This document shows, in pieces, positions 1,517 through 57,613 of a stretch of 64,000 nucleotides of DNA (position 1 is the first letter of the stretch; the number at the start of each line of letters is the position of its first letter). The DNA comes from Alphaproteobacteria bacterium (lineage in GTDB: Bacteria; Pseudomonadota; Alphaproteobacteria; SHVV01), in NCBI GenBank assembly GCA_965224275.1, contig CBDCYR010000005.1:386903-450902 (forward strand), read 5' to 3'. The translations under genes and the position numbers were made by a program. The notes beneath the pieces are model-generated. The model was not told the DNA's origin, made no database searches, and was given only the letters and a program-made list of their open reading frames with translations.

Positions 1517-2310
1517 ATGCCGCTCGCCTCGCTCAGCCTGTGCGACATCTACTACGAAATCCAGGGAGACGGATTTCCCGTCGTGTTTATCGCGGGGCTC
1601 GGCGGTGCCGCCGCTTCGTGGCGTCACCAAATCGAACCCTTTGCCCGCCACTTCAAGGTCATCACATTTGACCAGCGCGGCACCCACCGCAGTGGACCGG
1701 GGCCACTGATTGGCTCGGTCGACGACCTTGCTGCCGACACCATCGCGCTGCTCGATGAGTTGTCGATTTCAAGCGCCCACGTCGTCGGCCATTCGACCGG
1801 CGGCGCTATCGCTCAAACCCTGGCGATCGACTACCCCGATCGCGTTGGCGGCCTTGCACTGTGTGCAACCTGGCCCAAGTCAGACGCGTTTTTTCGTTAC
1901 GTGTTGGGCTTGCGGCTCGACATTCTGCGCACCCAGGGGATCGCCGCCTATCTGCGCTCGACCCCCTTTTTCGTCTACCCTGATTGGTGGATCAACGAAA
2001 ACTGGGACAGCCTCGCCGCCAGCATCGAAGCCGGGATCGCCAACCCGCCCGATATCGATGTGATGGTCTCTCGCATCGAAGCGATTCTCGCTTTCGACCG
2101 CGCGAATAGCCTGGCGCAAATCAATCACCGCACTGTGGTGTTGTGTGCGCGTAACGATATCCTGGTGCCGCCCTACATGGCCGAGGCGCTCAGCTCTGCG
2201 ATACCGGGTGCCGAAAACTTGCGATGCTCGAGCGCGGCGGCCACTCGTCCAACCAAACCACGCCCGATGCTTACAACGAAACCGTGCTCGGGTTCCTCAA
2301 CCGCGTTTGA
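1517..2310 (+). pseudogene. Alpha/beta-fold hydrolase (HGHSTGG nucleophile elbow) with apparent 1-bp deletion/frameshift in an A4 run at ~2213-2217; the conserved C-terminus (..AMLERGGHSSNQTT..FLNRV*) continues in the +2 frame to the stop at 2308-2310
   Basis: ATG at 1517 preceded by AGAGG. GxSxG motif VVGHSTGGAIA. The downstream frame encodes a typical hydrolase C-terminal His region. Could be a genuine pseudogene or a homopolymer sequencing error. Confidence 0.5.
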
Positions 2311-2360
2311 TCAGCGAATTTCACGGTATACTTGGCCGTCCGGCTAAGCTGAGGATAAAT

Positions 2361-10486: not shown

Positions 10487-11653
10487 ATGGCGGTCAGCGA
10501 ACGCGAGGCTGGTTACGCAGGTGTCATCGATGCGGTGGCATCGGAACTCAGCGAAACCCGTGTTCCGGTAACCCAGGCCCGCCATATGCCGGGCTACATC
10601 TACACCTCGCCGGAGATCTTCCGCCTCGAGAAGGAGCGGATTTTCACCAGGGATTGGCTGTGCGTCGCGCGCGTCGAGGAAATTGAACGCCCCGGCGATT
10701 ACCTAACGCTGCGCATCCTCGGCGAGCCCCTGATCCTCACCCGCGACGACGAGGGCGATATCAACGTATTCGCCAACGTCTGCCGCCATCGTGGCGTCGA
10801 GGTCGCCCGCGGCCACGGCAACACGTCGATGTTCAGCTGCCCGTATCACGGCTGGCGCTACGACCTGACCGGCCGCCTCGCCGGCGCCGCTTATATGGCC
10901 GAAGCCGAGCATTTCGACTCCACCAATTGCCGCCTCAAGCCAATCCTGTTCGGCGTCTGGCGCGGCTGGATTTTTATTAACTTCGATGCCAATGCCGAAC
11001 CGCTGGACGATTTCGTGGCGCCGCTCGAACAGGATTTCGGCATCCTCGAAATGGACCGTTGCCGGCTATTCGCCAAGCACCAGGTGGAGATCGATTGCAA
11101 TTGGAAGTTCGTGGTCGAGAACCTCACCGACATCTACCACTCCGAGGTTCTCCACTCTAAAACCTTCGCCGAATCGATCGACACCGAAAAGGTCGAATAC
11201 AAACTCACCGCCCGCGGCGGCAACAGCTCGTTCTACGACGCCGCACCGCACAATCCGAGCGGTAAGCCCTTGTTCGGCAAGATGCCGTGGATGACCGACC
11301 AGCCCGAAAGCTTCGCGCGATCGGGTTTCCTGGCGCCGAACTTCGACATGTTCAGCCGTGTCGACGAGGCCCACCCGGTCATCATCTGGCCGGTCTCGCC
11401 GACCAAAACCCACATTCTCATCTACCAGCTATTCCCAGCCGAGTTCTCCGCGACCAGCAATTTCGAGCAAAAGGCGCAGCTCTACCTGGATTACATGATC
11501 GCCATCGCCGAGGAAGATCGCGAGATGATCGAATCCCTCCAAAACGCTATGGACTCGACCTTGTTTGAGCCGGGCTGGATGTCCTACCTGGAGCGCGGCG
11601 TCCACCACGTCATCACCCACTACCTCGATCGCATGTTCCCGTTAGAACGCTAA
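10487..11653 (+). CDS. Rieske non-heme iron oxygenase alpha subunit (GbcA/CntA/Stc2-like group)
   Basis: CRHRG...CPYHGW Rieske motif. NWKFVVENLTDIYHSEVLH catalytic Fe motif. Confidence 0.8.
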   Translation: MAVSEREAGYAGVIDAVASELSETRVPVTQARHMPGYIYTSPEIFRLEKERIFTRDWLCVARVEEIERPGDYLTLRILGEPLILTRDDEGDINVFANVCRHRGVEVARGHGNTSMFSCPYHGWRYDLTGRLAGAAYMAEAEHFDSTNCRLKPILFGVWRGWIFINFDANAEPLDDFVAPLEQDFGILEMDRCRLFAKHQVEIDCNWKFVVENLTDIYHSEVLHSKTFAESIDTEKVEYKLTARGGNSSFYDAAPHNPSGKPLFGKMPWMTDQPESFARSGFLAPNFDMFSRVDEAHPVIIWPVSPTKTHILIYQLFPAEFSATSNFEQKAQLYLDYMIAIAEEDREMIESLQNAMDSTLFEPGWMSYLERGVHHVITHYLDRMFPLER

Positions 11654-25566: not shown

Positions 25567-26498
25567 GAGTCCGACTCGAAACTCTATGTTTGATAACAGT
25601 ACCTTGCGAGCCGCCTTGTGAGGAGTCGGATGTTGGCGACAAGAATCCATGCCTGTGCGGAGGCGATTGATTTCTCCCAATCCTTGGCCAGTCGACGGCA
25701 TCGGTTGAGCCAGGCGAAGGTCCTCTCGACGACCCATCGTCTGGGCAGGAGCTCGAAGCCCTGGGCGGTGTCTGAGCGCTTGATGATCTCGAGCTTCCAG
25801 CGGCCGATGTCCTCAAGGGCGCCCTCGAGTTTCGGTCCCGCGTAGGCGGCGTCGGCGAAGAGGTGACGCAGCCGGGGGAAGCGATGACGGATCGATTTGA
25901 GGACCTCGGGCGCGCCGTCGCGGTCCTGGATATCGGCTGCGTGCACGATCAGGCCGACCAGCAGGCCGAGTGTATCGGTGACGATGTGACGCTTGCGGCC
26001 CTTGATCTTCTTGCCCGCGTCATAGCCCCGAACACCACCGCTTTCCGTGGTTTTCACGCTCTGGCTGTCGATCACCCCGGCGCTCGGGCCGGCCTCGCGT
26101 CCTTCCAGCTCCCGGGCCGCCATGACCAGGTGATGGTTGATGCTCTCCAGCAGGCCGTTGGAGCGCCAGTCGTAGAAATAGCGCTGGACCGTGGAAGGCG
26201 GAGGGAAGTCGTTCGGCAACATCGCCCACTGGCAGCCCGTCGAGGCCATGTACATGACCGCATCCATGACATGGCGCAGGTCCGTCGTCCTCGGCCGGCC
26301 GATCTTCTTGCGCGGCGGCATGAGCGGCGCGATCAACGCCCACTCTCGATCCGTCAGGTCGCTTGCGTAGCGCCCGCCACGGCGCTCATAATTCGGGCGA
26401 GTGATTTCGGTCCACATGTTGTGCCTCCTCGTTTGCTTTGACACAACCGAGTAAGCCACAACCGACTGAAATCACTCAACTAGTTTCGGGTTGGCCTC
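25567..26498 (-). mobile_element. IS5-family (IS427/IS1031-like) insertion sequence copy 1, 932 bp, TSD TAA
   Basis: Terminal IRs GAGTCCGACTCGAAACT / GAGGCCAACCCGAAACT (rc). Flanking TAA at 25564-25566 and 26499-26501. Confidence 0.9.
25584..26459 (-). CDS. IS5-family transposase (DDE), 291 aa. Probable true start at ATGTGG (MWTEI) preceded by GAGGAGG.
   Basis: GRPRTTDLRHVMDAVMYMASTGCQWAMLP and DDE region typical of the IS5 family. Confidence 0.85.
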   Translation of the reverse strand: MAYSVVSKQTRRHNMWTEITRPNYERRGGRYASDLTDREWALIAPLMPPRKKIGRPRTTDLRHVMDAVMYMASTGCQWAMLPNDFPPPSTVQRYFYDWRSNGLLESINHHLVMAARELEGREAGPSAGVIDSQSVKTTESGGVRGYDAGKKIKGRKRHIVTDTLGLLVGLIVHAADIQDRDGAPEVLKSIRHRFPRLRHLFADAAYAGPKLEGALEDIGRWKLEIIKRSDTAQGFELLPRRWVVERTFAWLNRCRRLAKDWEKSIASAQAWILVANIRLLTRRLARYCYQT

Positions 26499-27352: not shown

Positions 27353-28564
27353 ATGAACAATACCGACACCGCTACGCCTGAGCTAGGGTCCGGACCACTC
27401 GCGGGGATCCGCGTCATCGACTTCACGCATATGCTCGCGGGCCCCTACGCAACCTGGATATTGGGCGCACTTGGCGCCGACGTCATCAAGGTCGAACGTC
27501 CCGAAACCGGCGATTTCACACGCGCGATCGAACCCCGCATCGGCGGCGAGAGCGTCTATTTCGCCAGCGTCAACCGCAACAAACGCAGCATCACCATAAA
27601 CCTTAAGTCCGACGAGGGTCGTGAGATCGCTCGAAAGCTTGTCGCTGGCGCCGATATTCTGGTCGAGAACAACCGGCCCGGTGTGATGGATCGACTCGAG
27701 CTCGGTTACGAAGCCCTCAGCGCGATCAATCCCGGCCTGGTCTACGCCTCGATCTCCGGTTTCGGCCAGACCGGACCGTTGCGCGATCGGCCAGCATTTG
27801 ACATGGTCATCCAGGCCATGTCGGGGATGATGAGCATCACCGGCACGCCCGATGGTCCGCCCGTGCGAGTGGGGACATCGCTCGGTGATATCGGCTCGAG
27901 TCTGTTCGGGACAGTTGGCATTCTCGCCGCGCTGCAAGAACGCAATCGCACCGGCAAAGGCGCCGCGATCGACGTCGCCATGCTCGACAGCCAGTTGGCG
28001 ATCCTCGAAAACGCCATCGCGCGCTGGTTCAATACCGGTCAGCGCCCTCAGCCGCTCGGCTCACGCCACCCCATGGTGGCCCCGTTCCAGGCTTTCGCGA
28101 CGCAGGATGAACCCATCGTCGTCTGCGTCGACACCACCGCTCAGTGGCAGCGATTGTGCGACGCGATGGCGCGCCCCGAATTGATCGGGGATCCGCGGTT
28201 CGCCGATAGCAATGATCGAGTCCGCAACCACGCCGAACTCGAGCCCGAACTCATGCGCACCTTCGCAACCCGCACACGTGACGAATGGCTCGCCGCGCTT
28301 GAGGTCGCCGACATCCCGTGCGGATCGGTCAATGCGATCGACCAAGCCATGGCATTGGATCAGGTCGCGGCGCGCGACATGATCTCCGACCTCGCCGATC
28401 AAGGCAGCGGACAATTCGTCGCCATGCCGATACGCACCGGATCACAGGAACCACTGGTTGAGCGTCGCGCCCCTCATCTCGGCGAGCACACCGACCAGGT
28501 TCTTGGCGAACTCGATTATTCCGCCGCCGATGTCGAACGTTTGCGCGCAATCGGCGCCGTCTAG
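27353..28564 (+). CDS. Family III CoA-transferase (CaiB/BaiF/Frc family)
   Basis: IRVIDFTHMLAGPYATWILGALGADVIKVE N-terminal signature. Confidence 0.8.
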   Translation: MNNTDTATPELGSGPLAGIRVIDFTHMLAGPYATWILGALGADVIKVERPETGDFTRAIEPRIGGESVYFASVNRNKRSITINLKSDEGREIARKLVAGADILVENNRPGVMDRLELGYEALSAINPGLVYASISGFGQTGPLRDRPAFDMVIQAMSGMMSITGTPDGPPVRVGTSLGDIGSSLFGTVGILAALQERNRTGKGAAIDVAMLDSQLAILENAIARWFNTGQRPQPLGSRHPMVAPFQAFATQDEPIVVCVDTTAQWQRLCDAMARPELIGDPRFADSNDRVRNHAELEPELMRTFATRTRDEWLAALEVADIPCGSVNAIDQAMALDQVAARDMISDLADQGSGQFVAMPIRTGSQEPLVERRAPHLGEHTDQVLGELDYSAADVERLRAIGAV

Positions 28565-28598
28565 CGGAACAAACCGATCAACAGGGGAGTTACAGCCC

Positions 28599-29498
28599 AT
28601 GGCCACCTTCACGACCACCGATGGCGTTCAGCTCTATTTCGAGGAAACCGGCGCCGGAACGCCGATCATCTTCGTGCACGAGTTTTCCGGTGACTATCGT
28701 GCCTGGGAACATCAGGTTCGCTTCTTCAGCCGCCGCTATCGCTGCATTACCTTTAACGCGCGCGGCTATCCGCCCTCGGAAGTGCCTGATGATGTCGAGC
28801 TCTATAGCCAGACGCGCGCAGTTACGGATATCTGCGAGACCCTCGATCACCTTGGTATCGACACGGCCCATGTTGTCGGCTTGTCGATGGGTGGCTTCGC
28901 CGCGATGCATTTCGGGCTGGACTACGCCGATCGCGCGCGCTCGGTCGTCATTGGCGGTGTCGGCTTTGGCGCCGACCCCAGTACCGCCGATAAGTTCCGC
29001 GACGAAGTCGAAGCCGTCGCCCGGCGCTGGGAGGACGAAGGCCCGGAGATATTCGCGCCGATCTATGGCCGGGGTCCGGGCCGCGAGCAGCTCGAAAACA
29101 AGGATCCGCGTGGCTTCGATGAATTCATCAAGCAACTCCAGCAACATTCCGGCCGCGGCGCCGCAATGACGCTACGCGGCGTGCAAATGCGCCGGCCCTC
29201 GCCGTGGGACCTGCGCGACCGTCTCGCCGAAATGACCGTTCCCGCCCTCGTCCTGCATGGCGATGAAGACCGCCCGGCGTTGCCGACCGGCGTGTTCCTC
29301 AAACAGACGATCCCCACAGCCGGCCTGGTGGTCCTGCCCAAGACCGGCCACACCGCCAACCTCGAAGAACCGGCCGCCTTCAATCAGGCGGTCCAGGATT
29401 TCATCCTCACCGTCGACAATGGCCGCTGGGAGCGCCGCGACAAACGCACCGAAAGCGAAGCCATCCTCTTAGAGTCCGACTCGAAACTCTATGTTTGA
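28599..29498 (+). CDS. Alpha/beta-fold hydrolase; native last two codons and stop (EK*) replaced by 8 IS-encoded residues because IS5 copy 2 inserted at 29472
   Basis: GLSMGG nucleophile elbow. ORF ends ...ILLESDSKLYV* inside the IS. Removing the IS with TSD TTA restores ...ILLEK*. Confidence 0.7.
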   Translation: MATFTTTDGVQLYFEETGAGTPIIFVHEFSGDYRAWEHQVRFFSRRYRCITFNARGYPPSEVPDDVELYSQTRAVTDICETLDHLGIDTAHVVGLSMGGFAAMHFGLDYADRARSVVIGGVGFGADPSTADKFRDEVEAVARRWEDEGPEIFAPIYGRGPGREQLENKDPRGFDEFIKQLQQHSGRGAAMTLRGVQMRRPSPWDLRDRLAEMTVPALVLHGDEDRPALPTGVFLKQTIPTAGLVVLPKTGHTANLEEPAAFNQAVQDFILTVDNGRWERRDKRTESEAILLESDSKLYV

Positions 29499-30403
29499 TA
29501 ACAGTACCTTGCGAGCCGCCTTGTGAGGAGTCGGATGTTGGCGACAAGAATCCATGCCTGTGCGGAGGCGATTGATTTCTCCCAATCCTTGGCCAGTCGA
29601 CGGCATCGGTTGAGCCAGGCGAAGGTCCTCTCGACGACCCATCGTCTGGGCAGGAGCTCGAAGCCCTGGGCGGTGTCTGAGCGCTTGATGATCTCGAGCT
29701 TCCAGCGGCCGATGTCCTCAAGGGCGCCCTCGAGTTTCGGTCCCGCGTAGGCGGCGTCGGCGAAGAGGTGACGCAGCCGGGGGAAGCGATGACGGATCGA
29801 TTTGAGGACCTCGGGCGCGCCGTCGCGGTCCTGGATATCGGCTGCGTGCACGATCAGGCCGACCAGCAGGCCGAGTGTATCGGTGACGATGTGACGCTTG
29901 CGGCCCTTGATCTTCTTGCCCGCGTCATAGCCCCGAACACCACCGCTTTCCGTGGTTTTCACGCTCTGGCTGTCGATCACCCCGGCGCTCGGGCCGGCCT
30001 CGCGTCCTTCCAGCTCCCGGGCCGCCATGACCAGGTGATGGTTGATGCTCTCCAGCAGGCCGTTGGAGCGCCAGTCGTAGAAATAGCGCTGGACCGTGGA
30101 AGGCGGAGGGAAGTCGTTCGGCAACATCGCCCACTGGCAGCCCGTCGAGGCCATGTACATGACCGCATCCATGACATGGCGCAGGTCCGTCGTCCTCGGC
30201 CGGCCGATCTTCTTGCGCGGCGGCATGAGCGGCGCGATCAACGCCCACTCTCGATCCGTCAGGTCGCTTGCGTAGCGCCCGCCACGGCGCTCATAATTCG
30301 GGCGAGTGATTTCGGTCCACATGTTGTGCCTCCTCGTTTGCTTTGACACAACCGAGTAAGCCACAACCGACTGAAATCACTCAACTAGTTTCGGGTTGGC
30401 CTC
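29472..30403 (-). mobile_element. IS5-family insertion sequence copy 2, 932 bp, TSD TTA
   Basis: Identical to copy 1. TTA at 29469-29471 and 30404-30406. Confidence 0.9.
29489..30364 (-). CDS. IS5-family transposase
   Basis: Identical protein to copy 1. Confidence 0.85.
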   Translation of the reverse strand: MAYSVVSKQTRRHNMWTEITRPNYERRGGRYASDLTDREWALIAPLMPPRKKIGRPRTTDLRHVMDAVMYMASTGCQWAMLPNDFPPPSTVQRYFYDWRSNGLLESINHHLVMAARELEGREAGPSAGVIDSQSVKTTESGGVRGYDAGKKIKGRKRHIVTDTLGLLVGLIVHAADIQDRDGAPEVLKSIRHRFPRLRHLFADAAYAGPKLEGALEDIGRWKLEIIKRSDTAQGFELLPRRWVVERTFAWLNRCRRLAKDWEKSIASAQAWILVANIRLLTRRLARYCYQT

Positions 30404-34167: not shown

Positions 34168-35145
34168 TCAGGTATCGAGCGCGGATTCGTGGAACAGTTG
34201 TTCGACCGGGATCGGACGGTCGATCAGCTTCTGGTCGGCAACGTAGCCGATGAACTGCTCGATGTTGGCGCGGTTGGCGGCTAGGCCCGAGGGGAACAAG
34301 TCCTCACCCAGCGTATCGCGCTGCCATTCAAACTCATTGCGCGCAAACACCAGCAGTGAGAACCCCGGATCCTCGTAGAACTCCGCCGTCTTGCGCTTGG
34401 CATCCTCCCAGCAGTCGATCATCGCGCGCGGCAACCAGGGATCCGCCTCGACGAGTTCGCGCGCGAATACCAGTAAATGCATGATCGGGCAGTAGCCGAA
34501 CTTCTCGAAGTGAAGCAGTGATTCGGCGCGCGCGTCGGGGAACAGGCGTCGCACCCGGTCCGGGTTGGCCAACACGGCCGACGGCGGCAGCGGGTGAAAC
34601 ATCGCGTCAAGTTCACCGTCGACCAGCATCTGGCCGGCGTCCTTGCCCTCGGGAATGTTCTGGACAGAGATTCCATCTCCGGCCCACGGTAACTCCTCGT
34701 GATATTGGATATGCCAGTCGATATCTTGCCAGGGTACGCCGTACTCCGATTTGAGATCGCCCTTCGCCAGCACGCACAACGTGGTTTGGAACGACCACAC
34801 GCCTACCCGCTTGCCGATCAGGTCGGTCGGCTTGTCGATCCCGGCATCGACATTGACAAACATGCAACTCTGGCTGAATAGCCGGCGTGGGAACACCGGT
34901 GTCGCCACGAAATCATCGCTGCGGCTCGACGACATGATGTAGGACGCCAACGATTGCTCGCAGATATCGAATTCGCGATCGCGAAACATGCGTCCATGAC
35001 GATCGATACCGTCACGTCGGCCCGGATCAAAACCGACGCCAACCTCGAGCGCCTTGAATTCGATCCCCTCCGGCGCCGCGACCGTTCCCATAAAGAAGGG
35101 CGCGTGACGGTCGAGCCGTTCAAGAGCAATCGTAAGGGTTCGCAT
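34168..35145 (-). CDS. NMT1/THI5-like (SsuA-fold) protein, 4,5-dihydroxyphthalate decarboxylase-like
   Basis: 325 aa. Assignment by recollection of PhtD/NMT1-like family features; low confidence. Confidence 0.35.
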   Translation of the reverse strand: MRTLTIALERLDRHAPFFMGTVAAPEGIEFKALEVGVGFDPGRRDGIDRHGRMFRDREFDICEQSLASYIMSSSRSDDFVATPVFPRRLFSQSCMFVNVDAGIDKPTDLIGKRVGVWSFQTTLCVLAKGDLKSEYGVPWQDIDWHIQYHEELPWAGDGISVQNIPEGKDAGQMLVDGELDAMFHPLPPSAVLANPDRVRRLFPDARAESLLHFEKFGYCPIMHLLVFARELVEADPWLPRAMIDCWEDAKRKTAEFYEDPGFSLLVFARNEFEWQRDTLGEDLFPSGLAANRANIEQFIGYVADQKLIDRPIPVEQLFHESALDT

Positions 35146-35452
35146 ACCGGCCTCGTCGAGGTTTGGTTAGGGACCGCGCGGGCGCTGCAGCGGCCCTGCT
35201 GCCGCGCAACTAAGACGCGATAACGTATACGGTTTCCGGCCGAAAACCATCATGTGGCCATCTGTTTTGCAGAGTTCGGCAGATCATTCCATGACTACCC
35301 GCCGACATCGGCGCGCTGGCGTGTGGGTTGATGGATGATGTGTAAAATGCCGGCATCATTAACCTAAGTTGGTGAGCGCCGAACATTATCGGTCAGGGTT
35401 GCGAGTGATCGGCGCACCATTCACACTGGGCGATCGAACCAGGAGCAAAGTT

Positions 35453-36553
35453 ATGTTTCTCAGGAATTACTGGTACGCAGCAGGGTTTAGCGAGGAAGTC
35501 GGACGCGATTTTCTCGCCCGCACTTATCTCAACGAAGACGTGGTGATCTTCCGTAAGGAAGACGGCACGCCGGTCGCATTGGAAAACCGTTGCGCCCATC
35601 GCCGCCTGCCCTTGTCGATGGGTAAGCTGATCGGCGATACCGTCGAGTGCGGCTATCACGGTTTGCTCTACGATTGCGCCGGCGCCTGCATCAAGATTCC
35701 AGGCCAGGACCGTGTTCCTAAAGGCACCGGCGTCAAGTCCTACCCGATTGTTGAGCGGCACCGTTATCTATGGATCTGGATGGGCGATCCTAAACGCGCC
35801 GATGAGGCGGAGATTCCCGATTTCAGCCGCATCGACGATCCCGCCTATGGCGTCTCCAACATCAAGCTTCGCCACAATGCCCACGTGCAACTCCTTATCG
35901 ATAATTTGATGGATTTATCACATCTTGCTTATGTCCACAGCACCACCACGGGAAGCCCGCAAATTGCCGAGCTCGCCGAGGTCGATACCATCCGTGAGGG
36001 CAACACAGTCAGCGTCAAGCGATGGATGGAGGATGTACCGGCACCGCGAACCCACCGCGAATTTGGCGGCTACAATGGCAATATGGATAGCTGGCAGGTA
36101 TCGGAGTTCAGTCCCCCAACCTATGTACGCGTTAGCTACGGTTCGCGCGGGACCGGCAACGGCGTGCCCAAAACCGACTGGTTCGACGATCAGGGACACT
36201 GGGGGTTCTACGTGTTTCACGGCCTGACGCCCGAGACCGATATGACGGCCCATCAATTCCGCTACATCGCCTTCGCAAAAGGCATCGGCAATAAGAAGCA
36301 AACCAAGGAGTTCATCCGTCAGTGCGATCAGATCATCACCGAGGACGCGGTTGTCTTCCCGATCCAGCAACGGGCCATCAACGATGATCTAGCCGAAACC
36401 GACGCCTGGAACATCAACGAACGGGTCCGCTTGATCCACGACGGTGGCCTCCTGCAATCGCGCCAGATCGTTGAGGATTTGTTGGCCCAGCAAGCCGCCA
36501 AGAAAAAGAAATCGGCGCGTAAAAAGCCCGGCAAACGCGCCGCTGCCCGTTAA
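35453..36553 (+). CDS. VanA-like Rieske oxygenase (vanillate O-demethylase oxygenase / KshA-type), copy 1, with Lys/Arg-rich C-terminal tail
   Basis: AGGAG RBS then ATG 35453 (MFLRNYWYAAGF). CAHRRLPLS...CGYHGL Rieske motif. Tail AAKKKKSARKKPGKRAAAR. Confidence 0.8.
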   Translation: MFLRNYWYAAGFSEEVGRDFLARTYLNEDVVIFRKEDGTPVALENRCAHRRLPLSMGKLIGDTVECGYHGLLYDCAGACIKIPGQDRVPKGTGVKSYPIVERHRYLWIWMGDPKRADEAEIPDFSRIDDPAYGVSNIKLRHNAHVQLLIDNLMDLSHLAYVHSTTTGSPQIAELAEVDTIREGNTVSVKRWMEDVPAPRTHREFGGYNGNMDSWQVSEFSPPTYVRVSYGSRGTGNGVPKTDWFDDQGHWGFYVFHGLTPETDMTAHQFRYIAFAKGIGNKKQTKEFIRQCDQIITEDAVVFPIQQRAINDDLAETDAWNINERVRLIHDGGLLQSRQIVEDLLAQQAAKKKKSARKKPGKRAAAR

Positions 36554-36573
36554 CGTTTCCAAGGAAGATCAAC

Positions 36574-37734
36574 ATGTTTCTGAGAAACCACTGGTACGTG
36601 GCCGCTTGGAGCGATGAACTCGGCAAAGACCCGCTCGCGGTCAAAATGCTCAATGAAGACGTCATGCTTTATCGCAAGCAGGATGGAACGCCGGTCGCGC
36701 TCGAAGATCGCTGCGCCCATCGCCGGCTACCGCTTTCGGAAGGAAAACTGATCGGCGACACCGTCGAGTGCGCCTATCACGGCCTCACCTATGATTGCAA
36801 TGGTACCTGCATCAAGGTCCCCGGTCAGGGCCGCTGGCCCAAGAAACTGGGCGTCAAATCATATCCGGTCGTCGAACGGCACCGGTTTATCTACGTCTGG
36901 ATGGGTGATGTCGAGGACGCCGAGGAGGCGCTGATCATCGATTTCCCGCTCCTGACCGACCCCGCATGGGGGGTGACCAAGATCCACCTCGATATCAAGG
37001 CCAACTACCTCCTGATCATCGACAACCTGCTCGAACTCAGCCACGTCGCCTACCTTCATTCGTCGACCATTGGCAACGCCCCGGTCGCCGAAGACGCCTA
37101 TGTTGCCTTCCATCGCGAGGGTAACGCAGTCCGGGTGATGCGTGAAATGGTCGACGTGCCGGCAGCCCGTACCTATGCCGAGTTCGGCGGTGAAGTCGCC
37201 AATTTCGATCGCTGGCAGACCTCGGAATTTCGCCCGCCCGCTTATTTCCTGATCAACAACGGGTCTGAAGCCACCGGTCGCCGGGCACCGGGCGACCATC
37301 GGCTGTGGGATCGCGGCGAGTGGGGCTTCCAGGTCTATCACGGGATCACCCCCGCCACCGAGAAGACCACGCATCAGTTTTGGGCGATCTGCCACCCCTT
37401 GGCGATGGTCCCTAAAAAGGGCCGCAAGGAGTTTTATCGCCAGTGTCATGAGGTGATCTGGGAAGACGTTGGCGTCTACCAGGCGCAACAGGTTTCACTC
37501 GACACCGATCCCGAGGGTCCGAGCGCCGACAACGTCAACGCCAAGGTGCGAATTGATTACGACGGCGCGTTCTTCGAAGCACGCCGAGTCATCAAGCGGA
37601 TGCTGAAAGAGGAAGCCGCGGCCGCGAAAGCCAAAAGGGCGCGCAAGTCGAAAAAGCGCGGCCGCAAGACTGCTCCGGTTGCCTGGATTTCTGTGCGCGG
37701 CGAACAGCAAGCACACCAACAGGCTGCTGAATAG
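36574..37734 (+). CDS. VanA-like Rieske oxygenase, copy 2, with Lys/Arg-rich C-terminal tail
   Basis: AAGGAAG RBS. MFLRNHWYVAAWSDE; CAHRRLPLS...CAYHGL. Tail AKAKRARKSKKRGRK. Confidence 0.8.
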   Translation: MFLRNHWYVAAWSDELGKDPLAVKMLNEDVMLYRKQDGTPVALEDRCAHRRLPLSEGKLIGDTVECAYHGLTYDCNGTCIKVPGQGRWPKKLGVKSYPVVERHRFIYVWMGDVEDAEEALIIDFPLLTDPAWGVTKIHLDIKANYLLIIDNLLELSHVAYLHSSTIGNAPVAEDAYVAFHREGNAVRVMREMVDVPAARTYAEFGGEVANFDRWQTSEFRPPAYFLINNGSEATGRRAPGDHRLWDRGEWGFQVYHGITPATEKTTHQFWAICHPLAMVPKKGRKEFYRQCHEVIWEDVGVYQAQQVSLDTDPEGPSADNVNAKVRIDYDGAFFEARRVIKRMLKEEAAAAKAKRARKSKKRGRKTAPVAWISVRGEQQAHQQAAE

Positions 37735-38406
37735 GCGATCACGGAGGTATCGGTGTTTCTGAGAGATTATTGGTACCTCGCGGCCTGGGCGCGTGACGTT
37801 GGGCGCGATCCGCTCGGGCGCGTGATGCTCGGCGAACCCGTGGTCTTGTTCCGCAAGCAGGACGGCACGCCTGTCGCTTTGGAAGACCGTTGCATTCACC
37901 GCCGCCTGCCGTTGTCGATGGGCAAGATGATCGGCGACGAGTTGCAATGCCATTACCACGGCCTGGTGTTCGACTGTTCGGGCGCGTGCGTCAAAATCCC
38001 GGGTCAGGATCGGGTCCCCAAATCGGCCCGGGTCAGGAGCTACCCCGTCGTCGAGCGCAATCAATGCGTCTTTGTCTGGATGGGCGATCCCGCCCAACCG
38101 GACGAGTCAAGGATCCCCACCCACTTTAACCTGCTCGATGAAGAGGGCTGGACCTCGAGCCTGGTCTATCGCCCGGTACGTTGCCACTACGAACTGATCA
38201 ACGACAATCTTCTCGATCTGTCCCACCTTGCCACGGTGCACGCCTCGACCGTCGGCACCGGCCACGTTGCCGATTTCGCCGATGTCGAAACCGAGCACGA
38301 GGGTCATCACATCAAAGTTTCACGCTGGACGATGGACGTGCCGGCCGCGACCACCTATCAGCAGTTCGGCAATTACGAGAGCAATATCGACCGTTGGCAG
38401 GTCTCA

Positions 38407-39338
38407 GAGTCCGACTCGAAACTCTATGTTTGATAACAGTACCTTGCGAGCCGCCTTGTGAGGAGTCGGATGTTGGCGACAAGAATCCATGCCTGTGCGG
38501 AGGCGATTGATTTCTCCCAATCCTTGGCCAGTCGACGGCATCGGTTGAGCCAGGCGAAGGTCCTCTCGACGACCCATCGTCTGGGCAGGAGCTCGAAGCC
38601 CTGGGCGGTGTCTGAGCGCTTGATGATCTCGAGCTTCCAGCGGCCGATGTCCTCAAGGGCGCCCTCGAGTTTCGGTCCCGCGTAGGCGGCGTCGGCGAAG
38701 AGGTGACGCAGCCGGGGGAAGCGATGACGGATCGATTTGAGGACCTCGGGCGCGCCGTCACGGTCCTGGATATCGGCTGCGTGCACGATCAGGCCGACCA
38801 GCAGGCCGAGTGTATCGGTGACGATGTGACGCTTGCGGCCCTTGATCTTCTTGCCCGCGTCATAGCCCCGAACACCACCGCTTTCCGTGGTTTTCACGCT
38901 CTGGCTGTCGATCACCCCGGCGCTCGGGCCGGCCTCGCGTCCTTCCAGCTCCCGGGCCGCCATGACCAGGTGATGGTTGATGCTCTCCAGCAGGCCGTTG
39001 GAGCGCCAGTCGTAGAAATAGCGCTGGACCGTGGAAGGCGGAGGGAAGTCGTTCGGCAACATCGCCCACTGGCAGCCCGTCGAGGCCATGTACATGACCG
39101 CATCCATGACATGGCGCAGGTCCGTCGTCCTCGGCCGGCCGATCTTCTTGCGCGGCGGCATGAGCGGCGCGATCAACGCCCACTCTCGATCCGTCAGGTC
39201 GCTTGCGTAGCGCCCGCCACGGCGCTCATAATTCGGGCGAGTGATTTCGGTCCACATGTTGTGCCTCCTCGTTTGCTTTGACACAACCGAGTAAGCCACA
39301 ACCGACTGAAATCACTCAACTAGTTTCGGGTTGGCCTC
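38407..39338 (-). mobile_element. IS5-family insertion sequence copy 3, 932 bp, TSD TCA
   Basis: TCA at 38404-38406 and 39339-39341. One nucleotide difference from copies 1 and 2. Confidence 0.9.
38424..39299 (-). CDS. IS5-family transposase
   Basis: Identical protein to copies 1 and 2. Confidence 0.85.
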   Translation of the reverse strand: MAYSVVSKQTRRHNMWTEITRPNYERRGGRYASDLTDREWALIAPLMPPRKKIGRPRTTDLRHVMDAVMYMASTGCQWAMLPNDFPPPSTVQRYFYDWRSNGLLESINHHLVMAARELEGREAGPSAGVIDSQSVKTTESGGVRGYDAGKKIKGRKRHIVTDTLGLLVGLIVHAADIQDRDGAPEVLKSIRHRFPRLRHLFADAAYAGPKLEGALEDIGRWKLEIIKRSDTAQGFELLPRRWVVERTFAWLNRCRRLAKDWEKSIASAQAWILVANIRLLTRRLARYCYQT

Positions 39339-40055
39339 TCAGAATATTTCCCGCCTTCCTATTGCCGCATCAACAACGGCGCCGCGGCGGTCAATACCGG
39401 CGCGCGCGAGGGCAAGGGCGAAAAGCGCTGGGATTTCTGGGTCAGCCACGGCATCACGCCGGAGTCCGAAACCTCGACTCACTATTTCTGGGCCCTCGCC
39501 CATCGCACCTGGACCAACAACCAAGACGACATCGAGGAGTTCCACCGCCAGTGCCATCACGTCGTCGGCGAAGATCTTGCCGTGTTTGCGGCCCAGCAGG
39601 CATCTATCGACCTCGACCCCGGCGCGCCCACCCTCGATATCCGCTACGACGCCGGCCCCATGATGGCCCGCCGTATCATCAACGAACTGCTAGAGGCCGA
39701 GCGAACACCTCCTGCAAACCACGAGTAGCGGTTCTGCAGCCCTTTGGGTGTTCCGCTAACCCAACCGTCGAACCGCGCATGCGGTTGTGGCGCTCTTGGG
39801 TATTTTGATTAGAGGCGGAGGCGTCCGGCTAGTTCGGGCAGAACATCCCAGAAGTTCTGCCAACCCAACACCGGACATTTCTAAGCGCTCGTGGGTCGCA
39901 CACGAATCATCATCGACGGCCTGCTCCCGTGAGCCGGTCTTGATCATTCCCCTCCTGCGGGTAAAGGACGGTCGCGTCCATTCGAACCTCAGGAATAGAC
40001 CGGGGCCGAAGCTCCATCTTGATTCGAATGACACTCGTACTATATATTATTACGA

Positions 40056-41465: not shown

Positions 41466-42602
41466 GTGGCCGGACAATACACAGCGATGATCTCAGGCGA
41501 TTCGCACATTTTCGAGAAAACGGATCTGTGGCGAAACGCACTTGGCGACAAATACGGCGACGACATCCCGCACGAGTTCTACGAATATAGGGGCAAGAAG
41601 GGGACCTACTTCTATACCGGCGCCCAGGTGCTGCTGACCGCCGGAGCTGATGGTGAGCACAAGCAAAGTGGGCTTCACCTCTCTGGCTACGACCCGGAAA
41701 AGCGGATCCAATACCAGAAGGATGCCAATGTCCTAGCCGAGGTGATCTACCCGACCTACGGCCTGATTGTGATGCAGAGCAAGCACCACGAGGCACTGAA
41801 CGCGGTGGCCGAGGTCTACAACGACTGGCTGTACAACGATTTCCTCTCTTACGACACGACGCGGTTGCTCGGGGTCGCCATGATCCCGACCACCAATGTC
41901 GATTGGGCGATCAAGGAACTCGAACGCTGCGTGAAGATGGGCTATGTCGGGGTCTGCTTCAATTGCCGCAATCTCGAAGGCACCCCGCCCTATCGCGATC
42001 CGGTCTACGACCCGCTGTGGGCGCGCTGCGCGGAAATGAATATTCCGGTCACGCTGCATTCGATCACCGGCCGAGTCCACGATCCGCTCCACCCCCATAA
42101 CGAAGACGAACTCATGGACGCGCCACGCTTGGCGCTGGATATCTACAATGAGATCCAGGGCACCCTTGGCAGCGACATTATTTTTGGCGCCGTGCTGGAT
42201 CGCCATCCCGATCTCAAAATCGTGGTCAGTGAGTTCGAACTTTCCTGGCTGCCCAACTTCGCCTTCCGCCTCGATATGATCAAAGACGGTTTTGCCAGCC
42301 GGATCACGTTGCCGAAACTGGAAATGAAACCAAGCGACTACTTACGCGAACGTTGTTATTTCGGCTGGATCGATGATGGTCGCGGGATGCTCGGGGTCGA
42401 AGAGGTTGGCGCCGACCGGGTGATGTGGGGCTCCGATTTTCCCCATGTACGTTCGGTCGGTGTTGATGCCCAGAGCGTTGTCGGCAAGATGCTGAGTAAC
42501 CTGGCGCCCGAGGATCAGGACAAGATCGTCGGTCTCAACACCGCGGAGCTCTACAACATCAACCACGAAGAGCTCTATTGGACGAAGCAAGCGGCCGAGT
42601 AG
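41466..42602 (+). CDS. Amidohydrolase-2 (PF04909) family enzyme, ACMSD/LigW-type non-oxidative decarboxylase-like
   Basis: GTG start after AAGGAGAAAACC. 378 aa. Motifs GDSHIFE, HS (His) region and WGSDFPH. Confidence 0.65.
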   Translation: MAGQYTAMISGDSHIFEKTDLWRNALGDKYGDDIPHEFYEYRGKKGTYFYTGAQVLLTAGADGEHKQSGLHLSGYDPEKRIQYQKDANVLAEVIYPTYGLIVMQSKHHEALNAVAEVYNDWLYNDFLSYDTTRLLGVAMIPTTNVDWAIKELERCVKMGYVGVCFNCRNLEGTPPYRDPVYDPLWARCAEMNIPVTLHSITGRVHDPLHPHNEDELMDAPRLALDIYNEIQGTLGSDIIFGAVLDRHPDLKIVVSEFELSWLPNFAFRLDMIKDGFASRITLPKLEMKPSDYLRERCYFGWIDDGRGMLGVEEVGADRVMWGSDFPHVRSVGVDAQSVVGKMLSNLAPEDQDKIVGLNTAELYNINHEELYWTKQAAE

Positions 42603-45670: not shown

Positions 45671-46858
45671 TCAAGGCGCCTTGGTCTGAGTTTCGGCCAT
45701 GGGGTCGTTAGCCCGCCGTCCAACAAGTTGACTCCATTCGTCGTAAAAGACACGCACGCTTTCGTCATCCTGAGTTGCGTGTCCTTCATGACGACCGAAA
45801 ATTCCGTACCGGGCTGCCCGCTCGCGGTTGGCTCGCGCGACGCACTCGACCGCAATTACGTCTTCGGGGACGTTACGTCCAAACGGCCCCCAAAACTCGT
45901 TGTGGTGCTCTATACGCATGGCGCGGTCTTGCGCGGATTCACCCTTTACGCCCAGTCCCCGCCACTCAACGAGTGTTTTCTCGGCGCTGAGCGCATTGGT
46001 CGTGTGAATCATCATCACGGTAGCGCGGCATACAAATACCGTATTCGGAAAGAGACCGACGACGCGGGTTTCGCCGGGATGTAGGCCAGGAAGGGTATTG
46101 TCGCGCTGGCCAGAACTGCCGATGTTTTGATAGCTCTGCCGCGTCGGTTCGAGCGAAGCATGACCATGAGGATAGAAATGCCAAGGCGTATCGAAGTACC
46201 CCTCTGTGCGGATTCCAACGCGACGGTTCAGATAGTGAAGATACTCATGGTACAGCTCCGTGCTCACCTCGTGCCATTGCTTCCAGTTAGCATCGACGAC
46301 TGCGCGATGCAGATGAAAAACCTCCAGTTCACCGGTTGCGAAAATGGAGGTCAGGCTCTCAAATGCATCACCTAAATAGTCGTCAAAAGAATTCGCCGAC
46401 GTATCCAAGTTGACGAACACTAAATCATGGCGGGTTTCCGCCCTAACTTCGCGTAAGCCCCGATCGGCCTTGCAGATCCCCGCTTCCTCGTATCCTTCTT
46501 CACGTGGAATCGAAATGCATTTGCCCGAGGTGTCATAAACCCAGTTGTGGAAAAGGCACGTCCATGACTTGGCATTGCCCGCAGCTTCTCGCAGCACCAG
46601 AGCAGAACGATGCGAGCAAGAGTTGATAAAGGCGCGGATTTGCCCATCATTGTCCCGGGCAACGATCAGTGGATACCCGGCGTACTCGAAGGTTCGGTAG
46701 TCGCAGGGAACCGGGATCTCGCTTTCGTGGCAGATGAATTTCCACGTCTTGCGAAAAACGAACTCCCGCTCATCGCGAAATATGTCGGGGTCTGTGTATA
46801 TTCTCGAGTCAACATAATCCCGTTCGTGCAGTGCAGTCTGGTGGGCCGAGCCTCCCAT
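45671..46858 (-). CDS. Rieske non-heme iron oxygenase alpha subunit (no adjacent beta subunit or reductase)
   Basis: CSHRS...CLFHNW Rieske motif. NWKQWHEVSTELYHEYLH catalytic motif. Confidence 0.8.
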   Translation of the reverse strand: MGGSAHQTALHERDYVDSRIYTDPDIFRDEREFVFRKTWKFICHESEIPVPCDYRTFEYAGYPLIVARDNDGQIRAFINSCSHRSALVLREAAGNAKSWTCLFHNWVYDTSGKCISIPREEGYEEAGICKADRGLREVRAETRHDLVFVNLDTSANSFDDYLGDAFESLTSIFATGELEVFHLHRAVVDANWKQWHEVSTELYHEYLHYLNRRVGIRTEGYFDTPWHFYPHGHASLEPTRQSYQNIGSSGQRDNTLPGLHPGETRVVGLFPNTVFVCRATVMMIHTTNALSAEKTLVEWRGLGVKGESAQDRAMRIEHHNEFWGPFGRNVPEDVIAVECVARANRERAARYGIFGRHEGHATQDDESVRVFYDEWSQLVGRRANDPMAETQTKAP

Positions 46859-50213: not shown

Positions 50214-51156
50214 GAGTCCGACTCGAAACTCTATGTTTGATAACAGTACCTTGCGAGCCGCCTTGTGAGGAGTCGGATGTTGGCGACAAGAATCCATGCC
50301 TGTGCGGAGGCGATTGATTTCTCCCAATCCTTGGCCAGTCGACGGCATCGGTTGAGCCAGGCGAAGGTCCTCTCGACGACCCATCGTCTGACCTTCACCT
50401 TGGCAGGAGCTCGAAGCCCTGGGCGGTGTCTGAGCGCTTGATGATCTCGAGCTTCCAGCGGCCGATGTCCTCAAGGGCGCCCTCGAGTTTCGGTCCCGCG
50501 TAGGCGGCGTCGGCGAAGAGGTGACGCAGCCGGGGGAAGCGATGACGGATCGATTTGAGGACCTCGGGCGCGCCGTCGCGGTCCTGGATATCGGCTGCGT
50601 GCACGATCAGGCCGACCAGCAGGCCGAGTGTATCGGTGACGATGTGACGCTTGCGGCCCTTGATCTTCTTGCCCGCGTCATAGCCCCGAACACCACCGCT
50701 TTCCGTGGTTTTCACGCTCTGGCTGTCGATCACCCCGGCGCTCGGGCCGGCCTCGCGTCCTTCCAGCTCCCGGGCCGCCATGACCAGGTGATGGTTGATG
50801 CTCTCCAGCAGGCCGTTGGAGCGCCAGTCGTAGAAATAGCGCTGGACCGTGGAAGGCGGAGGGAAGTCGTTCGGCAACATCGCCCACTGGCAGCCCGTCG
50901 AGGCCATGTACATGACCGCATCCATGACATGGCGCAGGTCCGTCGTCCTCGGCCGGCCGATCTTCTTGCGCGGCGGCATGAGCGGCGCGATCAACGCCCA
51001 CTCTCGATCCGTCAGGTCGCTTGCGTAGCGCCCGCCACGGCGCTCATAATTCGGGCGAGTGATTTCGGTCCACATGTTGTGCCTCCTCGTTTGCTTTGAC
51101 ACAACCGAGTAAGCCACAACCGACTGAAATCACTCAACTAGTTTCGGGTTGGCCTC
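50214..51156 (-). mobile_element. IS5-family insertion sequence copy 4 (943 bp: 932 bp plus an 11-bp insertion ACCTTCACCTT at ~50391-50401 that frameshifts the transposase), TSD TAA
   Basis: TAA at 50211-50213 and 51157-51159. Transposase ORF terminates prematurely (240 aa, 50395-51117). Confidence 0.85.
50395..51117 (-). pseudogene. IS5-family transposase, frameshifted by the 11-bp insertion
   Basis: Protein identical to other copies up to ...GFELLPR, then premature stop. Confidence 0.75.
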
Positions 51157-53959: not shown

Positions 53960-55353
53960 GGCTGTGTCTCGAAAGTGGTGGAAATTTGAGGATGGCGTAA
54001 TCTCCGGGTGACAAGACAACCACCCAACCGGCGGCTAGCACCGCCAAGGAGATCACGCCATGAAGAACACTACCGAGACTTCCGCGCTTTCGCTACTGGC
54101 CAATGACGCCGGCTATGATCCGCTCGAGGACCGGCTGCGGGAGAACATCAGATCCACGATCGAGGCCGTTTTTGAGGAGGAACTTGCGCAGTTTCTCGGG
54201 CGCTGCCGATACGGTCGAGAGGACGCGCTTCGGCAAGGGTATCGGAACGGGCACCGGGAGCGGCAACTGACGGGGACATTCGGGACCGAGAGGGTGAGCG
54301 TGCCGCGTGCACGGATCGTTGAGGAAGACGGTCGGGCGTCGGAATGGCGTTCGCGGGCGCTGCCGCGCTACCAGCGGCTGACCAGAAAGGCCGAGGCGCT
54401 GATCGCTTCGGTGTATCTGTCCGGAACCAACACGCGGCGGGTGAAACGCGCGCTGTTCGGGCTCTTCGGGGGTGCTGTGAGCAAGGACGTTGTGAGCCGG
54501 GCGTGGCGCAAGGTGAAGGTCGATTGGGACGCCTGGTGCAGCCGTGGCCTCGCGGATGAGGATATCGTTCGGCTGATCCTTGACGGCACTGTGATCAAGA
54601 CCCGACTGGATCGCAAGGCCACCAACATCTCGGTTCTCGCGGCTATAGGGGTGCGCCGGGATGGCCAGAAGGTCTTGCTTTCGATCGGGAATATGGGCGG
54701 AGAAAGCCAGGCGGCGTGGCGCCAGTTCCTCGACGACCTTGATGCGCGTGGACTGAAACGGCCCGGGTTTGTCATCGTCGATGGCGCGCCGGGACTGGAG
54801 GCGGCTCTGTCGGCGCTTTGGGGCGATGACCTTCCCGTTCAACGCTGCACCGTGCACAAGCACCGCAACCTTCTGGGTCATGCTCCCAAACACATGCATG
54901 ACGAGCTGAGCGAAGATTACCGCGATATGATCTATGCCGACACTGCCTCCGAGGTGGAAACCCGCCGCAAGGCGTTTGTCCGCAAGTGGCGGCTGAAATG
55001 CAGGGCCGTCGCGGACAGCCTCGCAGAAGCGGGCGACAAGCTCTTTACCTTCACGCGCCTGTCCAAGAGCCAATGGAAATCAGCCCGAACGACCAACGCC
55101 ATTGAGCGTCTCAACGAGGAGTTCAAGCGCCGGATCAAAACACAGACCGTGCTGCCGTGTCCCGAAACAGTGCCGATGCTCCTCTGGGCGCTCCTCGCTT
55201 GCGGCCAAATCCAGATGCGCAAAGTCGATGGATGGGAAACCCTCGATCAGCTAATCGCCGACGAAACCCTTGACCGCGCGGCCTGACCGCCGCAAAACTC
55301 AACCCGCTCGGAGAGGCGCCAAAACCAATTTCCACCACTTTCGAGACACAACC
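53960..55353 (+). mobile_element. IS256-family insertion sequence copy B (1394 bp), 9-bp TSD CGGGTTGCC, nested inside the IS1182 transposase gene
   Basis: Same IRs as copy A. CGGGTTGCC at 53951-53959 and 55354-55362. Confidence 0.85.
54060..55286 (+). CDS. IS256-family transposase (408 aa)
   Basis: 1-aa difference from copy A. Confidence 0.9.
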   Translation: MKNTTETSALSLLANDAGYDPLEDRLRENIRSTIEAVFEEELAQFLGRCRYGREDALRQGYRNGHRERQLTGTFGTERVSVPRARIVEEDGRASEWRSRALPRYQRLTRKAEALIASVYLSGTNTRRVKRALFGLFGGAVSKDVVSRAWRKVKVDWDAWCSRGLADEDIVRLILDGTVIKTRLDRKATNISVLAAIGVRRDGQKVLLSIGNMGGESQAAWRQFLDDLDARGLKRPGFVIVDGAPGLEAALSALWGDDLPVQRCTVHKHRNLLGHAPKHMHDELSEDYRDMIYADTASEVETRRKAFVRKWRLKCRAVADSLAEAGDKLFTFTRLSKSQWKSARTTNAIERLNEEFKRRIKTQTVLPCPETVPMLLWALLACGQIQMRKVDGWETLDQLIADETLDRAA

Positions 55354-56681: not shown

Positions 56682-57613
56682 GAGGCCAACCCGAAACTAG
56701 TTGAGTGATTTCAGTCGGTTGTGGCTTACTCGGTTGTGTCAAAGCAAACGAGGAGGCACAACATGTGAACCGAAATCACTCGCCCGAATTATGAGCGCCG
56801 TGGCGGGCGCTACGCAAGCGACCTGACGGATCGAGAGTGGGCGTTGATCGCGCCGCTCATGCCGCCGCGCAAGAAGATCGGCCGGCCGAGGACGACGGAC
56901 CTGCGCCATGTCATGGATGCGGTCATGTACATGGCCTCGACGGGCTGCCAGTGGGCGATGTTGCCGAACGACTTCCCTCCGCCTTCCACGGTCCAGCGCT
57001 ATTTCTACGACTGGCGCTCCAACGGCCTGCTGGAGAGCATCAACCATCACCTGGTCATGGCGGCCCGGGAGCTGGAAGGACGCGAGGCCGGCCCGAGCGC
57101 CGGGGTGATCGACAGCCAGAGCGTGAAAACCACGGAAAGCGGTGGTGTTCGGGGCTATGACGCGGGCAAGAAGATCAAGGGCCGCAAGCGTCACATCGTC
57201 ACCGATACACTCGGCCTGCTGGTCGGCCTGATCGTGCACGCAGCCGATATCCAGGACCGCGACGGCGCGCCCGAGGTCCTCAAATCGATCCGTCATCGCT
57301 TCCCCCGGCTGCGTCACCTCTTCGCCGACGCCGCCTACGCGGGACCGAAACTCGAGGGCGCCCTTGAGGTCATCGGCCGCTGGAAGCTCGAGATCATCAA
57401 GCGCTCAGACACCGCCCAGGGCTTCGAGCTCCTGCCCAGACGATGGGTCGTCGAGAGGACCTTCGCCTGGCTCAACCGATGCCGTCGACTGGCCAAGGAT
57501 TGGGAGAAATCAATCGCCTCCGCACAGGCATGGATTCTTGTCGCCAACATCCGACTCCTCACAAGGCGGCTCGCAAGGTACTGTTATCAAACATAGAGTT
57601 TCGAGTCGGACTC
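56682..57613 (+). mobile_element. IS5-family insertion sequence copy 5, 932 bp, TSD TAA; transposase carries TGG->TGA nonsense change at the MW(TEI) codon plus one missense (D->V)
   Basis: TAA at 56679-56681 and 57614-57616. ATGTGAACC at 56763 versus ATGTGGACC in the other copies. Confidence 0.85.
56721..57596 (+). pseudogene. IS5-family transposase with premature stop near the N-terminus (downstream Met ORF 56844-57596 remains)
   Basis: See mobile_element entry. Confidence 0.7.

Follow-up and report, generated by a model that had tools for sequence, protein, structure and literature searches.

The window analysed here is a 64 kb stretch (64,000 nt) of contig CBDCYR010000005.1 from an alphaproteobacterium, and all coordinates are given in window numbering. 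Three tandem genes on its forward strand encode VanA-like Rieske oxygenase α subunits (copies 1–3, the products of genes 1–3), with intergenic spacers of 20 and 18 nt, and the first two products end in Lys/Arg/Ala-rich tails. These tails are real, are translated and extend the C-termini of two VanA/DdmC-type α subunits of one operon in a lineage-specific manner; selection for positive charge has maintained them in several descendant lineages, and in others they have eroded. What is new is a clade-restricted, selected polybasic extension, predicted to be helical, on an otherwise known VanA-like kind of enzyme. In the following, L-numbers denote related loci or genomes (L001–L004 carry an intact copy 3) and P-numbers denote homologous proteins.

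The Pfam VanA_C domain ends at residues 345/346 in copies 1 and 2, and the tails are therefore true extensions of ~22 and 42 residues. The C-termini quoted in a preliminary description of this DNA, which reported Lys/Arg/Ala-rich tails on two Rieske oxygenases, are exact and lie beyond VanA_C. Copy 1 ends in AQQAAKKKKSARKKPGKRAAAR; its tail comprises A345–R366 (nt 36485–36550; 22 residues) with a net charge of +10 and a basic core at K350–R362 (nt 36500–36538). Copy 2 ends in KEEAAAAKAKRARKSKKRGRKTAPVAWISVRGEQQAHQQAAE, with a tail of 42 residues (K345–E386, nt 37606–37731) that contains a basic stretch, KAKRARKSKKRGRK (K352–K365, nt 37627–37668), and a distal segment, WISVRGEQQAHQQAAE (nt 37684–37731), terminating in -AAE. 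The basic-rich stretch amounts to ~13–14 residues in each tail. Lys is more frequent than Arg in the tails and Arg more frequent than Lys in the cores. A −1 frameshift at AAGAAAAAG in the copy 1 tail was considered and rejected; the alternative frame is not kept among orthologues.

Measured against orthologues at saturated synonymous divergence (proportion of synonymous differences, pS, 0.55–0.87), the proportion of nonsynonymous differences (pN) in the tails is 0.11–0.25. The pN/pS ratio is 0.16–0.37 overall (0.16–0.37 for copy 1 and 0.20–0.28 for copy 2; Fisher p of 1e-3 to 1e-8), compared with 0.05–0.15 for the cores, so that the tails are 3–4 times more relaxed and still clearly constrained. 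Synonymous divergence is not reduced in the tails and is as high as in the core, which places the constraint on the protein and not on the RNA. As judged from these comparisons of coding sequence, the tails are under purifying selection as protein. Their length and frame are kept among orthologues, and the substitutions are mostly K/R swaps or involve small neutral residues. The tail arginines are often encoded by AGG or AGA, from which a single transition leads to a Lys codon, and exchanges between the two residues proceed via codons of the AAG/AGG type.

These data bear most directly on the proposal that the tails have no function as protein and are either purine-rich 3′ sequence absorbed into the open reading frame (ORF) or an unstructured leader, acting at the RNA level, for the next cistron. 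The tail DNA is indeed purine-rich, with 0–10% T, strongly basic tails are found only on genes that are closely trailed by another cistron (the last gene, gene 3, is mostly without one) and tails have been lost repeatedly. However, the combination of low pN/pS with unreduced pS is the opposite of RNA-level constraint, length and frame have been preserved at saturated synonymous divergence, the charge is above the expectation from composition and a short basic end is also present on gene 3 of L019 and L021. An RNA-level role was rejected on the unreduced synonymous divergence in the tails. We consider an absence of protein function very unlikely, and among the rival explanations it is the only one that is clearly disfavored by the data.

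Acidic residues are avoided in the tails beyond the expectation from composition, and each of the 12 tails tested has a higher net charge than the average of its nucleotide-shuffled translations. For four tails of the copy 1 type this difference is individually significant at p ≤ 0.004, with p = 0.0005 for copy 1 of the window. The folded cores of genes 1 and 2 are acidic, with net charges of −7 to −17. The net charges of core and tail are as follows.

Window: gene 1, core −10 and tail +10; gene 2, core −7 and tail +7
L005: gene 1, core −10 and tail +11; gene 2, core −7 and tail +6
L006: gene 1, core −12 and tail +11; gene 2, core −8 and tail +8
L007: gene 1, core −17 and tail +13; gene 2, core −11 and tail +11

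Where genes 1 and 2 are tailed, gene 3 carries a net charge of −13 to −19, and no pattern of co-variation was seen between the presence of tails and the charge of gene 3 or of a decarboxylase relative encoded next to the operon. The near-neutralized cores fit either a partner-directed electrostatic arm or plain charge tuning. In the latter case the tails would adjust net charge or solubility without a specific partner, moving the isoelectric point from ~5.6–6.0 to ~7.2 and altering diffusion, stickiness or oligomer stability. Such tuning is rather unlikely. It would account for the near-exact cancellation in the window, L005, L006 and gene 2 of L007 (−11/+11) and for a charge that is retained though the tail sequence is poorly conserved, but orthologues and gene 3 remain uncompensated at −10 to −19, L008 and L009 compensate by half only and neutrality of a cytosolic oxygenase has no benefit that we know of.

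The tails are rare within the family. In a survey of 50%-identity cluster representatives of ~15 billion proteins, the best 150 were inspected and none of the 123 full-length representatives among them has a K-rich tail. Basic ends were flagged in nine representatives, and all are P/S/T/R-rich ends of fragments or of frameshifted or mis-framed calls. Tails as a family-wide trait are thus rejected (0/123). The preliminary description had held such tails to be abnormal for VanA/KshA enzymes, and this is borne out both by the survey, in which they are neither common nor conserved across the VanA family, and by alignment with the nearest solved structures, DdmC and GdmA, which are tail-less and stop shortly after the last helix. 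DdmC (dicamba O-demethylase; PDB 3GB4/3GKE) is matched with a phmmer E-value of 2.6e-39 and GdmA (guaiacol O-demethylase; PDB 7QWT) with 2.1e-37; the Foldseek TM-scores against copy 2 are 0.90 and 0.86, respectively, and the sequence identity is 28% in both cases. These VanA-type α3 monooxygenases share the Rieske plus VanA_C architecture and the metal-ligand positions with the window enzymes, but they end a few residues past the last helix without a Lys/Arg-rich extension (7QWT aligns to ...EEQAAAAA), and the window enzymes further differ from them in being three co-operonic paralogues with no adjacent reductase. KshA (3-ketosteroid 9α-hydroxylase), of the same superfamily, is a distant fold match with a TM-score of ~0.66–0.71.

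Using a criterion of at least 20 residues and a net charge of at least +6, 18 of the 120 closest homologues are tailed (P0001, P0007, P0009–P0018, P0020, P0022, P0024, P0108, P0112 and P0118), all within the immediate clade of copy 1 or copy 2. The C-termini of 258 long ORFs from the window and 18 related loci were also screened, and K-rich basic ends were found only in these oxygenase genes and in one probably spurious ORF; a genome-wide habit of basic tails is therefore rejected. A literature search on basic or C-terminal extensions of Rieske oxygenases turned up nothing relevant.

The operon, with the genes in the order 1-2-3, recurs in uncultured Alphaproteobacteria (L005–L012, L019, L021 and L022) and, more distantly, in Defluviicoccus-like genomes (L013–L015). 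It is found in split form in L016, L017, one metagenome-assembled genome (MAG) labelled Gammaproteobacteria (JAJDUQ01); the occurrence under that label could be owing to horizontal transfer or to a binning or labelling error. Gene 2 of L016/L017 is 80% identical, including EWLSVRGEE...QQAAG, and the gene 1 tail there is without charge. The preliminary description had suggested looking for tails in orthologues, and they are present in related genomes (L005–L009, L019, L021 and L022). Genes 1 and 2 are both tailed in the window, L005, L006, L007, L008, L009, L019 and L022, and the ends of both are short or lack net charge in L010, L011, L012 and L013–L015; in each genome the two tails are strong together or decayed together. 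Gene 3 is without a tail save in the L019/L021 sub-lineage, where it has a short end with a charge of +5.

In a neighbor-joining tree the three paralogues separate; clades 1 and 2 both have tail-less deep branches, and the same genomes supply the tailed inner clades of both. The simplest reading of this tree is that both tails were acquired by a single common ancestor of a group of uncultured Alphaproteobacteria, when the paralogues had already split, and that they have since eroded in some of its descendants. Aligned as DNA, the two tails show no homology that would be convincing, so that recent gene conversion between them does not explain the parallel and was rejected.

The structures of copies 1 and 2 were predicted with AlphaFold2 as isolated monomers, with a mean predicted local distance difference test score (pLDDT) of 90.9 and 90.3, respectively. 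The last helix of copy 1 comprises residues 328–356, with block pLDDT values of 93 (341–350), 73 (351–360) and 49 (361–366) and with the final four residues below 50. In copy 2 the last helix (residues 331–363) passes through KEEAAAAKAKRARKSKKRG at a pLDDT of ~92, and the block values for residues 361–386 fall to 63, 46 and 54. Along both tails the proximal basic part is helical and the distal 10–25 residues have a pLDDT of 46–63. In these models each tail is the last helix of the catalytic domain prolonged by 2–5 Lys/Arg/Ala-rich turns and followed by a flexible end, and it is predicted not to be a fully disordered H1-like domain.

The label given to the tails in the preliminary description, histone-H1/AlgP-like, does not hold beyond composition. 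AlgP/histone-H1-like and HC2-type proteins have a Lys/Ala/Arg-rich, net positive composition in common with the tails, but the latter are appended to an enzyme and their proximal half is predicted to be helical. No tandem repeats were detected in the tail DNA by Tandem Repeats Finder (TRF) and there are no units of the KPAA/AKP type; the tails alone matched no Pfam family, including histone-like families, at E ≤ 10. With no repeats, no Pfam match and a basic-rich stretch as short as that given above, the likeness is compositional only.

A related proposal, which takes up the association with nucleic acid or membranes suggested in the preliminary description, is that the tails bind a polyanion (nucleic acid, polyphosphate or anionic membrane lipids) and would tether the enzymes to it, for example near the entry of a hydrophobic substrate. 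The polybasic composition, with K over R and opposite to that of the core, is consistent with this, and W-I/L-S-V comes after the basic stretch in copy 2 orthologues. Lysine-rich segments bind polyphosphate in Escherichia coli YihI and RNase R (PMC12345225), and the H1-like AlgP is reported to be linked with the spacing of polyphosphate granules (PMC9239181). The YihI and RNase R segments resemble the tails in being short, lysine-rich, partly disordered and terminal on folded proteins; they differ in that YihI and RNase R are ribosome/RNA-related and that their binding was shown experimentally, whereas the tails are known from sequence and prediction. Nevertheless, polyanion binding appears rather unlikely: the tails have no repeat units and no family match of the H1/HC2/AlgP type, the 13–14 basic-rich residues show no hydrophobic face on sequence inspection, the Trp patch is missing from most tailed homologues and aromatic oxygenases are not known to have any functional connection with DNA.

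The function that we tentatively favor is electrostatic capture: projecting from an otherwise acidic enzyme, the basic arms would bind a partner that is acidic or polyanionic. The likeliest such partner would be a small, acidic electron donor of the ferredoxin type, whose gene would lie elsewhere in the genome and which would serve its many Rieske oxygenases in common. The tails would then let copies 1 and 2 encounter this limiting donor more often. Indirect support comes from the window itself, which contains six Rieske oxygenase α genes without a ferredoxin or reductase, and from the partly electrostatic nature of redox-partner recognition by Rieske oxygenases (reviewed in PMC12445004). No ferredoxin or reductase gene was found in the window (Pfam, 20 ORFs) or in 18 related loci (motif scans, which returned spurious wrong-frame matches only), and a VanB/DdmAB-type partner for copies 1 and 2 may be encoded elsewhere.

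Several observations weigh against this reading. VanA, TsaM and DdmC, all tail-less, function well with VanB as their source of electrons (PMC10249351), and the NdmA–ferredoxin complex, the single α3–ferredoxin complex in the review, has a hydrophobic interface (PMC12445004). The other three Rieske α genes of the window are tail-less, and the tails have decayed in L010–L012 and L017 while the operon was kept, which makes them dispensable. When tails of the copy 2 type are taken whole, including the neutral distal part, the charge excess has p = 0.04–0.45 and is mostly not individually significant. The single-chain models do not fix the direction of the C-terminal helix relative to the Rieske/ferredoxin face, and the donor is a candidate partner only.

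The operon and its immediate surroundings contain the following features.

34168–35145, − strand: 325-residue relative of 4,5-dihydroxyphthalate decarboxylase (PhtD-like), divergently transcribed, net charge −19
35453 (ATG)–36553, + strand: copy 1 (gene 1), VanA-like Rieske non-heme iron oxygenase α subunit, 366 residues
36574–37734, + strand: copy 2 (gene 2), VanA-like Rieske oxygenase α subunit, 386 residues
37753–38408, + strand: 5′ part of the interrupted copy 3 (gene 3), with Pfam Rieske and partial VanA_C matches
38409–39336, − strand: insertion sequence (IS) inside copy 3, 928 bp, with a 291-residue DDE transposase at 38424–39299 and a 7 bp target duplication
39337–39728, + strand: 3′ part of copy 3, ending in ...AERTPPANHE without a basic tail

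Pfam assigns a Rieske domain (PF00355) and a VanA_C domain (PF19112) to copy 1 (E-values of 7.8e-21 and 3e-33) and to copy 2 (4.3e-23 and 2.8e-34), and the start of copy 1 matches the gene call in identical contigs. The Rieske ligands (CxH...CxxH) are conserved without exception at C47, H49 and C66 and with few or no exceptions at H69; the iron-site residues H157, H162 and D298 (2-His-1-carboxylate) are invariant, and all three paralogues retain both metal sites. The earlier assignment of these enzymes to VanA/KshA stands as far as VanA-like membership is concerned, on the Rieske plus VanA_C architecture, and fails for KshA: the KshA_C scores of 22.9 and 18.1 bits are below the gathering score of 23.3 and the PDB E-values are only ~1e-9, so that copies 1 and 2 are not KshA. 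VanA proper (vanillate O-demethylase) was likewise rejected, with no equivalog score and just 28% identity to DdmC and GdmA. These oxygenases fall short of every NCBIfam equivalog, the best being SdmA with 104–113 bits against a cutoff of 600. The 5′ part of copy 3 is 100% identical to nt 1–656 of copy 3 in L001. The intact copy 3 (L001–L004; a metagenome contig 99.9–100% identical to the window) has 346 residues and also ends in ...AERTPPANHE, in agreement with the earlier statement that this copy is without a tail.

The three paralogues have a fixed gene order with short spacers (window 34168–39728; L005–L015, L019, L021 and L022). In 12 related genomes the decarboxylase relative (E-value of 2.2e-40 against PDB 9jp7) accompanies the three oxygenase genes, with an identity of 61–95%, and it is better conserved than the oxygenases. 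The trio may represent a heterotrimeric oxygenase or a three-step pathway, both of which are possible. The tails have a place in the first of these if subunits 1 and 2 use their basic arms to clasp the acidic gene 3 product (−13 to −19) or the decarboxylase (−19) in a hetero-oligomer or metabolon. A heterotrimer of three conserved, co-operonic paralogues is possible, and assembly of this kind would be consistent with the linkage of the three paralogues and the decarboxylase, with the short spacers between the oxygenase genes, with co-varying tails on two of the three subunits and with the retention of both metal sites in all three. As a role for the tails, we nevertheless regard it as unlikely: every characterized VanA/DdmC-type enzyme is listed as α3 (PMC12445004), and the charges of gene 3 and of the decarboxylase do not track the presence of tails.

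The distal segment of copy 2 has a conserved pattern of its own, E/xW[IL]SVRGE...QQAAE (P0001–P0008, L005, L006 and L016). Copy 2 ends in -QQAAE, and a terminal -AAE is present in 18 of the 123 diverse VanA-like representatives (15%; P0133–P0262), compared with 0.12 expected from the internal AAE frequency. As -AAE is a common end in the family, copy 2 looks as though its basic stretch had been inserted between the last helix and a C-terminus that is conserved. A DNA-level cause of the -AAE end was rejected; the codons vary synonymously, there is no extended motif and stop-codon usage is not clearly unusual. Terminal -AAE may be a short C-terminal recognition motif, and the copy 2 tail could conceivably serve as a tether for a motif ...Q-A-A-E-COOH that is recognized by a common partner (a scaffold, receptor or adaptor), although we find this unlikely. 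If it were true, the polybasic stretch and the AAE end would mark an undescribed recruitment of catabolic enzymes to a shared partner or, alternatively, a means by which three paralogues are combined into a heteromeric oxygenase.

An Amidohydro_2 gene in the same cluster (41466–42602) ends in ...YWTKQAAE. Among its 120 closest homologues, the ~13-residue W[TS]KQAAE extension is found only in three complete orthologues (P0270, P0271 and P0273; 70–96% identity), and the remaining homologues stop directly after the last helix. On the tether reading, this lineage-specific extension would have brought the ending of copy 2 to an enzyme unrelated to the oxygenases. The remaining ORFs of the loci with an -AAE end encode unrelated proteins, namely a DNA methyltransferase, BipA and an ArsR-rhodanese.

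The MuA/ClpX `C-motif 2' is a type of basic C-terminal degron. The basic residues of the tails lie ~5–20 residues from the C-terminus and the distal tail has low predicted order, as would suit a turnover signal of this type, but the likeness is compositional only, the tail ends are diverse (AAAR, QAAE, AAA and ATA) and no protease or adaptor context was found. We regard such a signal as highly improbable.

Rieske oxygenases are central to the turnover of aromatic and lignin-derived carbon and are targets for enzyme engineering. The way in which they locate their electron donors is recognized as a gap in current knowledge (PMC12445004), and two paralogues that independently acquired a selected polybasic arm, in an oxygenase-rich genome with no nearby reductase, provide a natural experiment on partner capture or localization. 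If the tails bind polyanions or membranes, this would point to aromatic catabolism being spatially organized in uncultured Alphaproteobacteria of marine or freshwater habitats; should they have no measurable effect, they would exemplify low-complexity extensions that are selected yet dispensable.

The surrounding region is a catabolic island that is dependent on electron donors encoded elsewhere. Its further Rieske oxygenase α genes are located at 2145–3746, 10487–11653 and 45671–46858, one being LigXa-like and two of the Ring_hydroxyl_A type, and the window also contains at least six Amidohydro_2 genes and at least two sets of TRAP transporter genes. At least five copies of one IS with the 291-residue DDE transposase are present (25568–26497, 29475–30399 and 38409–39336, with partial copies near 50395–51117 and 56739–57596). 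Three of the insertions, which interrupt copy 3 and an α/β-hydrolase gene (28458–29498), are missing from the 99.9–100% identical contig L001; this indicates a very recent expansion of the IS in the window strain. Two ORFs of 408 residues with the same C-terminal sequence, inverted and ~49 kb apart (3917–5143, − strand; 54060–55286, + strand), probably represent two copies of another mobile element, between which much of the island lies.

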